Of a stretch of DNA of 64,000 nt, positions 1-4,673 are shown one piece after another. A model generated the notes under the pieces. The model did not search any database, was not told the DNA's origin, and saw only the letters and a list, made by a program, of their open reading frames with translations. The position numbers and the translations under genes are program-made. The DNA is from Bacteroidota bacterium (GTDB lineage Bacteria > Bacteroidota > Bacteroidia > Chitinophagales > Chitinophagaceae). Position 1 is the stretch's first letter. Each line of letters begins with the position of its first letter. The DNA is taken from the NCBI GenBank assembly GCA_023386045.1, contig JAEWKK010000008.1, positions 34,653 through 98,652 of the forward strand, given 5' to 3'.

Positions 1-100
1 GCCATATGCTATAAGCCATAAGCCATGAACCATAAGCCATAAGCCATCTGCCATACGCTATATGCCAAAGCCATGAACTATGAACCATGAACTATGAACT
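1..100. repeat. Heptanucleotide tandem array, about 14 units, + strand consensus RCYATGA (GCCATAA / ACCATGA / ACTATGA); runs off the window start
   Basis: Splitting bases 1-100 into 7-mers gives gccatat gctataa gccataa gccatga accataa gccataa gccatct gccatac gctatat gccaaa gccatga actatga accatga actatga. There is one 6-nt unit. Confidence 0.9.
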
Positions 101-104
101 CCCA

Positions 105-139
105 CAAAAAAGCCCTGCAAACAAATCTGCTTACAGGGC
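105..139 (-). terminator. Intrinsic terminator of the tRNA-like RNA gene
   Basis: GCCCTG (112-117) pairs with CAGGGC (134-139), plus 2 further inner pairs. On the minus strand the hairpin is followed by TTTTTT (rc of 105-110). Confidence 0.75.
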
Positions 140-167
140 ACTACACACATGAAAATGGAGACAAATG

Positions 168-347
168 CTGTAGGGGGAGGATTCGAACCTCCACGGGGCA
201 GTTAGCAACAACACAAAGAGTAGTGGTCAATCCTGGTCGGCTGACTCCCGGATATGCCGGGATACGTCGGCTCTATGTTGCGTTTATCCTGTTTCCCCAC
301 CCCCGAGACAAGAGGGCATGTCTGCCTAAGGTTTCATCACCCCACAG
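168..347 (-). ncRNA. Unclassified structured RNA with a tRNA-like / tmRNA-TLD-like architecture
   Basis: Read on the minus strand, the T-arm is GGAGG-TTCGAAT-CCTCC (176-192). An 8-bp closing helix CTGTGGGG/CCCTACAG joins 340-347 to 168-175. A 5-bp helix GGCAG/CTGCC (322-326 with 197-201) lies 13 nt after the 5' acceptor strand and 4 nt before the T-arm. There is an internal hairpin TCCCGG-n5-CCGGGA (246-262). The terminator lies about 28 nt downstream. The only ORF here (94-378, +) is on the opposite strand and looks non-protein-like. Confidence 0.55.
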
Positions 348-427
348 TATGATCGGAGTTGTGCAGAAAGTGTTTTAATCCTTTGATCCTGCTTACTCCT
401 GTAAAAGAACTTGACAGGTCAAAAATA

Positions 428-478
428 GAATGGAATAAACAATATTCAATCAACATTCAAAAACTTTAGATTCCATTC
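428..478. promoter_or_regulatory. Inverted repeat GAATGGAAT-n33-ATTCCATTC plus three ATTCAA direct repeats upstream of the Lrp/AsnC gene; candidate operator
   Basis: The 9-bp perfect inverted arms are at 428-436 and 470-478. ATTCAA occurs at 444-449, 455-460 and 475-480. The site is 47 bp upstream of the ATG at 525. Confidence 0.3.
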
Positions 479-524
479 AATATCTTAGCATATCAATGAA
501 TTAAATCTAAAACCAATCGTTAAA

Positions 525-1001
525 ATGGCCGCTTCTTTGAATATTGACAAACTGGATCTTAAGATCATTCAGCAGCTGGCCCATGATGCCAGCCCTTCTT
601 ATGCTGAATTGGGAAAGAAATTATTTGTTTCGGCAGGCACCATCCATGTGCGCATCAAAAAATTACAGGACGCGGGCATTATAAGTGGCATGCGCTTCAC
701 GGTTGACCTGAAAAAACTGGGCTATGATGTAATTGCCTTTATTGGAATTTACTTAGAGAAAAGCTCTCTATACGATTCCGTTGCAAAGGAGCTCAAAAAA
801 ATTCCTCAGATTGTTCGTATGAATTATACCACTGGTAATTACAGCATTTTTGCAGAGATCGTGTGCAAGGATATTGCCCAACTTCGTTCTATCTTACACG
901 ACGAACTGCAAAAGATCAAGGGCATTGAAAGAACGGAAACATTCATCTCCCTCGAGGAGAGCCTGAACCGAAGCCTCAGTGTTGCCACCAATGAATCATG
1001 A
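525..1001 (+). CDS. Lrp/AsnC family transcriptional regulator
   Basis: 158 aa. The N-terminal HTH (DKLDLKIIQQLAHDASPSYAELGKKLFVSAGTIHVRIKKLQDAGII) and a C-terminal RAM-like domain are typical of the AsnC family. Confidence 0.9.
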   Translation: MAASLNIDKLDLKIIQQLAHDASPSYAELGKKLFVSAGTIHVRIKKLQDAGIISGMRFTVDLKKLGYDVIAFIGIYLEKSSLYDSVAKELKKIPQIVRMNYTTGNYSIFAEIVCKDIAQLRSILHDELQKIKGIERTETFISLEESLNRSLSVATNES

Positions 1002-2401
1002 AAACTTCGGCATTTTTCAAAGGACTATTCTCTCTGATCCTTCTCAACCTGCTGGTAAAACCGGTATGGATGTTCTTTATCGACAGGGAAGTGCAGAACA
1101 TCGTGGGTCATGAAGAATACGGCCGCTATTTCGCCGTACTCAATCTTTCCTATGTACTGTTTTTTTTGTCCGATGCTGGTCTGAGCAACATGATCAATCA
1201 ACGTATTGCTAACGGACAAAAACTGAACATCCCGCAATTACTTCGCATGAAAATGCTGATGCTGTTGTTATATGTAGCGGTTTGCCTGCTGGTAGGTTGG
1301 CTCACTGGTATTACTCAATGGTCCTACCTTTTTTATGTGCTGCTGATCCAGGTTTTTACTTCTCTTTTTATTTTTTTCAGGAATATCATTACCGGTCACC
1401 AGTTGTTCAATACAGATGCCTGGCTTTCTATTATTGATAAAACGCTGATGACAGTTTTTTGCGGAGCGATACTGTATACTTCTTTTTTTGGCAGCATCAA
1501 CCTGGTTTTGTTTTTACAGGTGCAGGCCTTGTGTACTGGCATTGCCTGTCTCAGTGCATTTCTAATGATGAGAAAGAAAGGATTGGTGCAGGAAGCAGAA
1601 ACCATCATTCCCTCACGTATTATCAGGATGATCCTTCCCTTTGCCATCATCATCCTGCTCATGTCTGTTCATTACAGGATCGATGGTTTCCTCCTGGAAC
1701 GTATCCATCCCGATGGAGCCATGCAGGCCGGTATCTATGCATCGGCTTACCGTTTATTGGATGCCAGCAATATGGTAGGCTATCTTACCTCATCTTTCCT
1801 GATCTCATTTGTAGCCAGGCATATCAACGATCGTGCGTTCATTGATGATGCCGTGATCAATACAAGGCATGCCCTACTTTTTTTTGTGACCGGTGTTGTT
1901 TGTTTCACACTCATGTTCACTCCCTGGATCCAGCAATTGCTCTATCATTCAAATGATTTTTACCATTCCCAGGTGATCAGGTTTTGCATTGCTTCCCTCC
2001 CGGGTTATTTCCTGGTGCATATTTATGGCTCTGTGCTGACCGCCACTGGTAAATTCAAAACATTTATTACCATATTGATAATTTGTGTTTGCCTGAACCT
2101 GTCATTGAACATCTTATTCATTCCGGCTTATGGCGCATTGGGTTGCTGCTATTCCGCCATTGCCAGTCAATACCTCTGCGGACTAGCCTGCATGTTCATC
2201 ACAACAAGAAGTTTCAACTTAAGGCTTCACTATCCTTCGCTGTTGGTTTACCTCCTTCTTGCTGTTTTATTGCTGGGATTCTTTTATTTTGCCAATAACT
2301 GGGGCATCAATACCTGGATGGCAGGAGCCATTGCAGCATTGGGTACCTTATTGCTTTTGCTCACACAGGTCAAGAAAAAATATTTTATTACACTGCGTTA
2401 A
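998..2401 (+). CDS. Polysaccharide/oligosaccharide flippase (Wzx-like, MOP superfamily)
   Basis: 467 aa with about 12-14 hydrophobic helices. The layout is typical of polysaccharide biosynthesis proteins. The start overlaps the regulator stop (ATGA). Confidence 0.7.
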   Translation: MKTSAFFKGLFSLILLNLLVKPVWMFFIDREVQNIVGHEEYGRYFAVLNLSYVLFFLSDAGLSNMINQRIANGQKLNIPQLLRMKMLMLLLYVAVCLLVGWLTGITQWSYLFYVLLIQVFTSLFIFFRNIITGHQLFNTDAWLSIIDKTLMTVFCGAILYTSFFGSINLVLFLQVQALCTGIACLSAFLMMRKKGLVQEAETIIPSRIIRMILPFAIIILLMSVHYRIDGFLLERIHPDGAMQAGIYASAYRLLDASNMVGYLTSSFLISFVARHINDRAFIDDAVINTRHALLFFVTGVVCFTLMFTPWIQQLLYHSNDFYHSQVIRFCIASLPGYFLVHIYGSVLTATGKFKTFITILIICVCLNLSLNILFIPAYGALGCCYSAIASQYLCGLACMFITTRSFNLRLHYPSLLVYLLLAVLLLGFFYFANNWGINTWMAGAIAALGTLLLLLTQVKKKYFITLR

Positions 2402-2409
2402 GCTTAATT

Positions 2410-3249
2410 ATGCCTGATCTTTTACACGTATTTATCAGAAGATGGAAGATGATCCTCTTCCTTACCTTACTCGCGGGGATTATTGCTTTTATTTTTTCTC
2501 TTTTAAGTCCTAAAGAATACCTCTCCACTGCCACAGCCCTGCCTGTGAATGTGATGGTAAATGAACGGTCAAGGATCTTCAGCAATAATATCCAGGTTCT
2601 TTATTCCGATTTCGGCACACCTGATGAACTGGATAAGATTGAAGGAACAGCCGCGCTGGATACCATTTTCATTGCAACAGCCGAGGAATTAAACCTTGCA
2701 GAACATTACAATATTCACGCGGGCAGTGAAAGTATTTATAATGCCGCTTTGGCGCTGAGAAAAAACAGTAAGATCAGCAGAAGCGGTTACGGTGAATTGA
2801 AAGTAAAAGCCTGGGATAAGGATAATGCAATGGCCGCAAAGATGGCCAACAGCCTTTTGCAGAAAATCCAGCAATTGCATCAGCGATTACAGAATGAAAA
2901 CAGCAAACTGGTTTTGGAAAGACTGAAGCAGGATTACCAGGCCAGGCAGCAGCAATTTAAAAGCCTTTCTGATTCCGCAGCTTCCTTTGCCGGCGCGGAT
3001 GCAGAATTATGGTCTGCAAAAAAAACTGCCATGCTGCAACAGGTACAGCAATATGAAAACCTTATCGATCAATACCAGATCAGCATCAATTCCAATCCAC
3101 AGGTTTTACTTACAGTGGAAACTGCAAAGCCTTCACCATGGCCCGATAAGCCGAAGCCTTTACCTACTTTGCTATTGGCTGTTTTTGCCACATTCATCTT
3201 TGCTTTTCTTCTTGCCTTATTTATTGAAAGCAGAAATAACAGGGGTTGA
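2410..3249 (+). CDS. Chain-length determinant (Wzz/PCP-like) protein without a kinase domain
   Basis: 279 aa. It has an N-terminal TM helix followed by PKEYLSTATALPVN (a Wzz-type motif), a long Q/E-rich coiled-coil, and a C-terminal TM helix. Confidence 0.65.
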   Translation: MPDLLHVFIRRWKMILFLTLLAGIIAFIFSLLSPKEYLSTATALPVNVMVNERSRIFSNNIQVLYSDFGTPDELDKIEGTAALDTIFIATAEELNLAEHYNIHAGSESIYNAALALRKNSKISRSGYGELKVKAWDKDNAMAAKMANSLLQKIQQLHQRLQNENSKLVLERLKQDYQARQQQFKSLSDSAASFAGADAELWSAKKTAMLQQVQQYENLIDQYQISINSNPQVLLTVETAKPSPWPDKPKPLPTLLLAVFATFIFAFLLALFIESRNNRG

Positions 3250-4673
3250 TCAGTAGTTATAACAGGACAATTATTTTTTTCTTCAGTGTTTTTATGCTGT
3301 TGATAGCAGGCTTGTTTGCCTACTACCAGGAGCCCTTGTTCTTAGCAGCACCTTTGGTAATTGTTGGTGGCATATTGTTGTTGCAGCATCCAATTTGGCT
3401 TTTATATGCTCTCATGCTGACCATTCCCTGGAGCATTGAATACAATTTCACCCCCAGCCTGGGTACCGATCTTCCCGATGAACCACTGATGCTGCTGGCT
3501 TCTCTGGCAAGCCTGATCCTGTTCATTACACAAAGAGGAAAGATCAATGCTGTCAAATTCCTTCATCCGTTGGTGATCATTGTGATTTTGCAATTTATCT
3601 GGTCAGGATTCACCCTGATCACTTCTACGGAAAAATTATTATCGCTAAAATATTTACTGGCAAAAGGCTGGTACCTCTTATCATTTATAGCACTTCCGCT
3701 TTTCCTTTTTAAAGATGAAAGAACCATAAAGAGGGCTGCCGCCATGCTTTGTTTTTCCATGCTGGTATTTATGTTTTATGCCATTGCAAAGCACAGTCAG
3801 TACAACTTCACCTTTGAAAAAATCAACCTTGCACTGGAACCTTTTTACAGGAACCATGTAAACTATTCTGCCATGCTTGTATTTACTGTTCCAATTCAGG
3901 TGGCAGCAATACAACTGGTGAAGCCTGGCAAACTAAGAATGCTTCTCATTTTTGTATTTGTGATTTGCCTGGGTGCTCTTTATTTTTCATATGCACGTGG
4001 TGCATGGCTTGCGTTGATCGTAGCAGTTGCAGGTTACTGGCTCATCAGAAAGCGATTGCTTTTTGCCAGTTTTTTAGTTTTTATATTCCTTACACTAGGA
4101 GCGGTATTTTGGTTGCGTGCCAACGACAACTACCTGAAATTCTCCCACGATTTTAAATCAACTGTTTTTCATACCAATTTCCGTGAACACCTGGCGGCTA
4201 CTTACCAGTTCAAAGATGCTTCTACAGCAGAACGTTTCTATCGTTGGGTAGCAGGAGTCAGAATGATTGAAGACAGCTGGAAAACAGGCCTCGGACCTAC
4301 CAGCTTTTACCATCGCTACAGGAGTTATACGCAACCTGCTTTTAAAACCTGGGTGAGTAATAACCCCGAAAAATCAACGGTGCACAATTATTTTTTACTG
4401 ATGATCATCGAACAGGGTGTGATCGGGCTTGTATTATTTGTTGTGCTTCTTGCAGTATTATTCTGGTATGCGCAAACCATTTACCATCGCACAGGTAACA
4501 GGTTCTGGAAGATCACCACTGCAGCAGTTGCTGCGATATTATTGATGGAGTGCGTCATCAATTTTCTAAGTGATATGATAGAAACCGACAAAGCGGGTCC
4601 TGTATTTTATTTGAGTCTGGCCATATTGGTCATTGCTGATCTCAGAACAAAAAACGAAAAGAAACCAGCTTAG
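3246..4673 (+). CDS. O-antigen ligase / polymerase family membrane protein (Wzy-like)
   Basis: 475 aa and polytopic. The YARGAWLALIVAVAGY segment is typical of the O-antigen ligase (Wzy_C) domain. A TTG start overlaps the upstream stop (TTGA). Confidence 0.7.
   Translation: MISSYNRTIIFFFSVFMLLIAGLFAYYQEPLFLAAPLVIVGGILLLQHPIWLLYALMLTIPWSIEYNFTPSLGTDLPDEPLMLLASLASLILFITQRGKINAVKFLHPLVIIVILQFIWSGFTLITSTEKLLSLKYLLAKGWYLLSFIALPLFLFKDERTIKRAAAMLCFSMLVFMFYAIAKHSQYNFTFEKINLALEPFYRNHVNYSAMLVFTVPIQVAAIQLVKPGKLRMLLIFVFVICLGALYFSYARGAWLALIVAVAGYWLIRKRLLFASFLVFIFLTLGAVFWLRANDNYLKFSHDFKSTVFHTNFREHLAATYQFKDASTAERFYRWVAGVRMIEDSWKTGLGPTSFYHRYRSYTQPAFKTWVSNNPEKSTVHNYFLLMIIEQGVIGLVLFVVLLAVLFWYAQTIYHRTGNRFWKITTAAVAAILLMECVINFLSDMIETDKAGPVFYLSLAILVIADLRTKNEKKPA

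Follow-up and report, generated by a model that had tools for sequence, protein, structure and literature searches.

A tRNA homologue with a giant variable arm and invariant aspartate identity nucleotides in Chitinophagaceae and phages

In transfer-messenger RNA (tmRNA), a D stem and an anticodon arm are both lacking, a long internal insert takes the place of the anticodon arm, and the molecule has a G3·U70 pair and an open reading frame (ORF) for a tag. YrlA is a non-coding RNA that likewise embeds a tRNA-like module and also occurs in phages; it ends in a Ro-binding stem, and its acceptor-like stem is capped. Here, we describe an RNA gene on the minus strand at positions 167–346 of a 64,000-nucleotide (nt) stretch of DNA from a Chitinophagaceae bacterium (contig JAEWKK010000008.1 of assembly GCA_023386045.1, positions 34,653–98,652; the whole stretch is referred to as the window). 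It is a genuine gene of ∼179 nt, and its product folds as a complete tRNA cloverleaf with an L-shape core. The RNA is a true tRNA homologue, with an arm of 104 nt at the position of the variable loop, and the topology of YrlA is permuted relative to it. The family is absent from Rfam 15 and unreported by ARAGORN, no published description of an equivalent RNA was found in the literature, and we regard it as a tRNA-derived RNA. The first-pass annotation of the window, made from the letters alone, had already singled out a stand-alone, conserved tRNA-like RNA gene of ∼180 nt that no known family explains, which was borne out by the relatives described below and by the Rfam and ARAGORN checks. The tmRNA-like topology that it assigned to the molecule did not survive structural comparison.

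The minimum free energy fold of the single sequence is unremarkable (z = −1.8), so the case for the RNA rests on comparison with relatives. In blastn searches over ∼78 loci, the conserved block is exactly window 167–350, and a covariance model (R1) for which only bacterial copies were used matches the window once, at 164–350, with 176 bits. U1 is located at position 346, the discriminator G73 at 168, and an invariant C74 at 167, which gives 179 nt to the discriminator. As had been noticed in the first pass, CCA is not encoded, and there is no tag reading frame or mRNA-like domain. ARAGORN made no call anywhere in the window, Rfam 15 gave nothing at gathering thresholds in the window, and a search of window 1–700 at E < 10 returned nothing relevant, with no match to tmRNA, tRNA, Y RNA, 6S or RNase P models; no YrlA match was found at the locus. 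The tools that miss this RNA do find real tmRNAs on two of the phage contigs that carry it (L097 and L102).

The structure was derived from an alignment of 80 distinct Chitinophagaceae copies with RNAalifold and pair counting, and family-wide pair counts were taken over 216 distinct members. In the 80-copy alignment nine helices are supported, 97.4% of the cells are paired, and compensatory changes are present in 20 pairs and 258 cells, values that were reached by 0 of 500 shuffles; in controls with the partners slid by 1–3 columns, only 43–59% of the cells were paired. Every stem covaries over the 216 members. Some invariances among these members are forced by the patterns with which they were extracted. 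Unbiased sets are provided by the bacterial copies found through the neighboring protein, by the phage copies found with a 3′-only pattern (for the 5′ half), and by those found with a 5′-only pattern (for the 3′ half), and U1–A72, G2–C71, G73, and C74 are constant in these sets too.

The acceptor stem is formed by UGUGGGG (positions 1–7, window 340–346) and CCCUACA (175–169), the latter followed by G73 and C74 to complete the 3′ strand (167–175). Covariation is seen at 4:69, 5:68, 6:67, and 7:66, U1–A72 and G2–C71 are invariant, and G73 and C74 are invariant both in the 80 copies derived from the protein neighbor and in the phage copies found by the 5′-only pattern. An 8-bp acceptor between CCCUACAG (175–168) and CUGUGGGG (347–340) had been proposed. 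These strands are present, but the eighth pair (C-G in 61, U·G in 16, and A/G in three copies) shows no compensation, and because it does not covary the acceptor is counted as 7 bp. The G-U pair was correctly placed at 4:69 and not at 3:70, but G·U is not conserved there: the pair is G·U in 140 members, A-U in 68, U-A in four, and G-C in three, and 3:70 is U-A in 214 of 216 members. The T arm, GGAGG-UUCGAAU-CCUCC at 192–176, stands as first described and covaries in the 80 Chitinophagaceae copies and in the 216 members. Together with the preceding G47–U48 linker (194–193) it occupies 176–194, with a stem (192–188/180–176) that covaries at 50:64, 51:63, and 52:62 and a loop UUCGAAU (187–181); G53–C61 and the UUCGA loop are found in 80/80 protein-neighbor-derived copies.

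The D arm (318–339) starts with U8 (339) and G9 (338). Its 3-bp stem is composed of A10, U11, and G12 (337–335) and C23, A24, and U25 (320–318), and closes an enlarged loop that contains A14 (333), A15 (332), and G18G19 (326–325) and in some species carries an extra GNRA-capped hairpin. In the 80-copy alignment 100% of the D-stem cells are paired. Over the 216 members, 10:25 is A-U in 187, G-C in nine, G·U in six, U-A in two, and C-G in one, and 11:24 is U-A in 192, C-G in 16, and U·G in seven. G26 (317), which pairs with U44 (G26·U44), leads into an analogue of the anticodon arm (300–317 including G26), with a covarying 5-bp stem (316–312/304–300; four pair types at 30:40 among the 216 members) and the 7-nt loop UUGUCUC (305–311), in which G34, U35, C36, U37, and C38 are at 309, 308, 307, 306, and 305, respectively. 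Loop positions 34–38 (GUCUC) are invariant, even in phage copies found by a pattern that does not include GUCUC. Positions 32–33 vary (UU, CU, UC, CC, plus CG in contig L267), so the family consensus of the loop is YYGUCUC, with U, C, or G at position 33 and always U at position 37. U48 formally pairs with A15 as the Levitt pair, and the canonical tertiary nucleotides of tRNA are kept (U8, A14, 15:48, G18G19, G53–C61, and the T loop). With the giant arm removed in silico, ARAGORN recognizes a tRNA-Asp(GUC) starting at U1 in 23–29 of the 80 copies, depending on the linker. Two further pairings were tried and rejected. In a pseudoknot of AGAC (323–320) with the loop GUCU, C23 sits in the D stem, and changes to AAAC, AUAC, or AGCC are uncompensated in the invariant loop. 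In a hairpin GGCA-GACA-UGCC, the change of G26 to A goes with pairing to U44 and not with a change in C.

This cloverleaf replaces the arrangement drawn in the first pass, in which a P2-like helix between GGCAG (326–322) and CUGCC (201–197) was preceded by a 13-nt D-loop analogue. The helix shows 0 compensatory changes and 34 broken cells; the CUGCC columns covary instead with GGGG..CAG at 298–289. The GGCAG strand is really the G18G19 part of the D loop, and what had been read as a D-loop analogue belongs to a genuine D arm, as its 5′ half. Among the three helices proposed for covariation in relatives, the acceptor and T stem therefore covary and P2 does not. With P2 refuted, the tmRNA tRNA-like-domain topology falls: the D stem (10:25 and 11:24 covary) and a 5-bp anticodon-type arm are present, and the insert is located in the variable-arm position. 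A tRNA with its anticodon arm replaced, also suggested, does not fit a molecule that has a 5-bp stem and a 7-nt anticodon-type loop.

The giant variable arm (298–195; 195–299 with U44 at 299) comprises 104 nt between U44 and U48. It was shown to consist of two stacked helices that are joined by a GAUAAA/CUAA internal loop and end in a three-way junction. The first of these helices is composed of H2a (298–295/198–195; 4 bp), which covaries in all 216 members, and H2b (291–289/201–199; 3 bp), separated from H2a by a bulge. The conserved internal loop (GAUAAA at 288–283 and CUAA at 205–202) connects H2b to H3 (282–271/218–206; 12 bp). Compensatory changes, counted from the RNAalifold structure, are found in 13 pairs of H2a, H2b, and H3. 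Beyond H3 lie a variable hairpin, H4 (269–238), which is often GNRA-capped, and a conserved hairpin, H5 (235–221), with the loop GGAUUGACCAC in the window copy. The H5 hairpin, whose loop consensus is written out as GGGUYGACCAC, is missing from a few phage copies and from the short bacterial paralogues, in which the AUAAA/CUAA loop is kept; it is this GGGUUGACCAC hairpin whose GAC could be imagined to pair with the GUC loop as a codon in cis. Such pairing is disfavored, as the H5-less copies of L236, L253, and L268 and the short bacterial paralogues keep GUCUC.

The family has at least 216 distinct members, from soil and freshwater Bacteroidota and from phages. In bacteria, its constant neighbor is a divergent gene for an AsnC-like regulator (525–1001, plus strand, in the window), which has Pfam AsnC domains. 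The best NCBIfam model of the protein is the AsnC equivalog (160.6 bits, compared with 54.5 bits for Lrp), the curated cut-off of which (227) is not reached. A search with this protein over one genome per species yielded 80 loci, nearly all labelled Chitinophagaceae or Chitinophagales, including Flavisolibacter, Niastella, Sediminibacterium, Flavihumibacter, Paraflavitalea, Filimonas, Thermoflavifilum, Segetibacter, Puia, and uncultured Chitinophaga. The RNA region matched in ∼78 of the 80 loci by blastn (72–84% identity), always just upstream of and divergent from the regulator. A contig end truncates the six loci in which no full copy is present, and every Chitinophagaceae locus with enough sequence carries the RNA. 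Conversely, when metagenomes were searched with an RNA-only pattern, 83 of 123 copies among the matches listed were ≤700 nt from an AsnC homologue, 12 were in tRNA arrays, and the rest were at contig edges or in phage-like DNA. The protein-first and RNA-first searches agree, so the bacterial linkage to AsnC is independent of the query partner. The length of the RNA varies over the family from ∼109 to ∼229 nt. Tandem paralogues upstream of the same AsnC-like gene were also observed, as a short and a long copy (L021, L027, L068, L042, and L043) or as two long copies (L065, L076, L138, L141, and L206); the first arrangement occurs in Niastella and Flavihumibacter and the second in Segetibacter and Puia. 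The short form (∼120 nt) still has the cloverleaf and the AUAAA/CUAA loop, with one small hairpin in place of H3–H5.

Approximately 90 viral contigs of IMG/VR and one GenBank phage of 636 kb carry the RNA. An anticodon-arm pattern recovered it on 22 IMG/VR contigs, and a 3′-only pattern, which leaves the anticodon loop unconstrained, on 74, with source contigs of up to 366 kb; blastn against GenBank phages gave a single match, an unannotated 636-kb uncultured megaphage. The model R1 finds all 42 phage-type copies searched, at full length and with 81–142 bits. The phage copies are flanked by genes for a DnaB-like helicase and exonuclease on one side and for the terminase large subunit and portal on the other, and are often located within tRNA arrays, which is evidence that these regions are genuinely phage. 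Analysis of neighbor-gene enrichment at the phage loci returned only terminase, portal, helicase, and exonucleases, and no functional partner. The tRNA clusters that hold the RNA in L097 and L102 also contain canonical tmRNAs (at 278–665 and 3222–3582), with Rfam scores of 75 and 67 bits, respectively, and with the tag ANEYAVAA* predicted by ARAGORN for L097. A canonical tRNA-Asp(GUC) is co-resident in L104, L106, L153, L176, L197, and L219. Because canonical tmRNA and tRNA-Asp co-reside with the RNA, it is neither of them. Separately, 88–90-nt tRNA-Asn(GUU) genes were called on huge-phage contigs (L253 4756–4845 and L105 2249–2336), with a long class II-like variable arm that is unusual for tRNA-Asn.

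Among ordinary tRNAs, those scored best by R1 are seven phage tRNA-Leu(UAA) genes (34–50 bits), ahead of tRNA-Asp (31–37 bits); a rough global alignment of the core with the tRNAs found alongside it was not decisive (19.4 for Asp and 18.0 for Leu), and the covariance model is clearer. The D arm of tRNA-Leu, UGAUGGAAUGGUAGACAUG, has the same motif as the RNA (UGAUGRAA..GGYAGACAUG, with a 3-bp D stem), and both molecules have A15–U48, G18G19, and a long arm followed by G-U ahead of the T stem. From the R1 scores, the D-arm motif, and the long arm followed by G-U, we conclude that the family descends from a class II tRNA-Leu. The changes since that ancestor comprise A73 to G73 (A73 is the crucial Leu determinant (PMC9976931)), G1–C72 to U1–A72, replacement of the Leu anticodon loop by YYGUCUC, and expansion of the variable arm from ∼15 nt to the ∼45–150 nt found in the family.

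What the RNA may do is suggested by its identity nucleotides. Aspartate identity depends strongly on G73, G34, U35, C36, and C38, with a minor contribution of G2–C71, and U1–A72 confers amidotransferase amidation of Asp-tRNA(Asn), which G1–C72 blocks in tRNA-Asp (PMC9976931). All five strong aspartate determinants are present and invariant in the family. With respect to features of a GatCAB substrate, U1–A72 is present and the D loop is enlarged, and the amidotransferase GatCAB is reported for Chitinophaga pinensis and Niastella koreensis despite the presence of AsnRS and GlnRS (PMC4206432 Table S1). The AsnC-like neighbor, taken with GatCAB in these two genera, is a context that points in the same direction as the identity rules. 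In the reading that we rank first, and to which we give roughly an even chance of being right, the RNA would be matured like a tRNA, aspartylated, and perhaps amidated to carry Asn, and would not act as an ordinary decoder. By analogy with established tRNA biology, RNase P would cut at U1, the 3′ end would be trimmed, and CCA would be added. AspRS would then aspartylate the RNA, as suggested by the invariance of all five strong determinants, and GatCAB could convert Asp to Asn on it, a more speculative step that is proposed because U1–A72 is the GatCAB determinant. A pyrimidine at position 37, variation at position 33, and so bulky an arm make ordinary decoding unlikely: to our knowledge, U33 and a purine at position 37 are nearly universal in decoding tRNAs, and neither is kept here.

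Several points weigh against aspartylation and amidation. The RNA lacks the G1–C72 pair, which helps to position the 3′ end in AspRS of E. coli, and also G10, a determinant in that species. A class II body with G73 also fits SerRS. The neighbor-gene analysis of the phage copies revealed no conserved partner enzyme, the need of a phage for an Asp or Asn carrier is hard to see, and the linkage to AsnC could be mere synteny inherited within one family. The enlarged D loop could, by analogy with U20a (PMC9976931), be an antideterminant for GatCAB. GatCAB is likewise found together with AsnRS and GlnRS in other Bacteroidota, namely Pedobacter and Spirosoma (PMC4206432), and this combination is therefore not specific to carriers of the RNA.

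Unlikely, although the least so among the alternatives, is that the RNA is a decoy or sponge whose tRNA-Asp-type loop and acceptor end would bind, and not serve, AspRS, a modification enzyme, or a tRNA-cleaving toxin or defense nuclease, acting as counter-defense for phages and as a regulator for the host. That GUCUC, G73, and the L-shape core are invariant while the decoding positions (U33, purine 37) are not kept would suit a decoy, as would its wide distribution in phage tRNA clusters beside ordinary tRNA-Asp genes. However, no nuclease, toxin, or repair gene is conserved nearby in the phage neighbor analysis, the conserved 100-nt arm is left unexplained, and conservation by vertical descent at every Chitinophagaceae locus points to a housekeeping function. 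We find it rather more doubtful that the RNA is a working translational tRNA, whether as an Asp isoacceptor of unusual form or as a class II tRNA that SerRS would charge on account of the long arm and G73 and that would read GAY codons, with the arm used for regulation or factor binding. The cloverleaf and its tertiary nucleotides are complete, the gene sits in phage tRNA arrays, and a switch from A73 to G73 converts Leu to Ser identity, which uses the variable arm and ignores the anticodon (PMC9976931). This reading has to contend with the invariant U37 and with U, C, or G at position 33, Ser at Asp codons would be mistranslation, and a branched arm of 104 nt is without known precedent on the ribosome. 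Improbable, in our estimate, is an extension of the first-ranked reading in which the RNA is a dedicated non-ribosomal carrier: AspRS, perhaps even a discriminating one, would load Asp via G73, GUC, and C38, GatCAB would turn it into Asn via U1–A72, the giant arm and U37 would keep the mischarged species off the ribosome, and the resulting asparagine route, under AsnC control, would have been captured by phages. GatCAB is without an obligatory role in Chitinophagaceae because AsnRS and GlnRS are present. In E. coli, asnA adjoins asnC, and the RNA gene holds the matching position next to the AsnC-like regulator.

It is very unlikely that the locus is a tRNA gene with an intervening sequence in the variable region, the removal of which would leave a tRNA of ∼75–80 nt. 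Although ARAGORN accepts the arm-deleted sequence as tRNA-Asp, the covarying helix that closes the arm extends the tRNA core in the manner of the variable stem of class II tRNAs, the internal loop and the H5 hairpin are conserved from bacteria to the 636-kb phage, the short paralogues still keep an arm of ∼45 nt, the spliced product would still have U37, and no Rfam intron or ribozyme matches the locus. We know of no bacterial intron of such size or position. Least credible of all is the original idea of the first-pass annotation, a tmRNA-like RNA for ribosome rescue that would have the tRNA-like domain but none that codes for a tag, which the structural comparison already refutes. Its acceptor and T arm are real, and tmRNA forms without a coding sequence are known from organelles and one mycobacteriophage (PMC11915505). 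But there is no G3·U70, the D stem and anticodon-type arm are present, P2 is refuted, no tmRNA model matches even at E < 10, canonical tmRNA genes are found on the same phage contigs, and the annotation of a Chitinophagaceae genome lists one tmRNA (PMC11349053). A mini-tmRNA with a two-codon ORF (AAAC GNN NNN UAG/UAA), the sole candidate for a tag reading frame, was considered as well and rejected: the codons lie inside the covarying H3, the variation between UAG and UAA reflects a compensated exchange of a base pair, the motif is without a counterpart in the short paralogues, and the implied peptides differ.

The RNA gene is a separate, independently terminated transcription unit. The intrinsic terminator reported downstream in the first pass is present at 139–112 (minus strand), with a 12-bp stem and then a T run, and a T run of ≥5 occurs within 70 nt downstream in 127 of 143 bacterial copies. 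On the other side, a conserved leader A-Y-A-Y (347–350, minus strand) abuts U1, with A at position −4 in 125 of 143 and at position −2 in 135 of 143 bacterial copies, and a GTTC[TA]T motif ends 5–8 nt upstream of U1 in 56 copies. Leader and motif are probably the promoter/start region. A scan for sigma-70 promoters found nothing, with a tool that does not cover organisms using other promoter types. Beyond the window, the sequence extends as part of a 475-kb metagenome contig (L001, in which coordinates are those of the window plus 9476). Directly downstream of the terminator lies the heptamer array that had been pointed out at window 1–100, a degenerate array of ∼150 nt (GCCATAA/ATGAACT, plus strand) that extends on to ∼L001 9440–9576 and is followed by ∼700 nt in which no gene is called. 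The end of the AsnC-like gene shares 4 nt with the beginning of an ORF of 467 aa, which has neither an NCBIfam match nor a Pfam hit on record and after which come Wzz-like and O-antigen-ligase/Wzy-like genes (window 998–4673); because of these downstream genes, the regulator may head an envelope-polysaccharide operon. In the intergenic region between the RNA and the regulator gene, an inverted repeat TTGAC-CT-GTCAA (window ∼397–421, L001 9873–9897), also seen in L007, is a possible operator. Its TTGACC core is common to the conserved hairpin loop of the RNA.

The family exposes an annotation blind spot, in that tRNA genes can evolve into far larger structured RNAs that standard finders overlook. 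Its mixture of a tRNA-Leu body, aspartate determinants, and an amidotransferase determinant is unprecedented and makes it testable whether an aminoacylated RNA works outside ordinary decoding. The RNA bears on why bacteria with AsnRS and GlnRS retain GatCAB and on the role of non-tRNA genes in phage tRNA clusters. If the dedicated-carrier proposal were true, it would represent an RNA-scaffolded route to asparagine.

The nearest known RNAs are class II tRNA-Leu in the body, tRNA-Asp and tRNA-Asn in the identity positions, and tmRNA in the acceptor and T-arm half alone, and the RNA departs from defining features of each. It shares G73, G34, U35, C36, C38, and G2–C71 with tRNA-Asp, and U1–A72 together with G73 with tRNA-Asn, but no canonical tRNA joins a GUC anticodon with U1–A72. 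It also differs from both in U37 and in its class II body, and from tRNA-Asp in the absence of G1–C72 and of a class I short variable loop, in place of which it has the 104-nt arm; ordinary tRNA-Asp and tRNA-Asn genes lie beside it on the same phage contigs. Canonical elongator tRNAs measure ∼70–95 nt, whereas the RNA reaches ∼109–229 nt and has neither a fixed U33 nor a purine at position 37. Like tmRNA, it has ends paired in an acceptor that stacks on a canonical T arm, its interior carries a long insert, and it occurs in phage tRNA clusters. However, tmRNA is without the D stem and anticodon arm that the RNA possesses, and the G3·U70 pair and tag ORF of tmRNA are both absent from the RNA.

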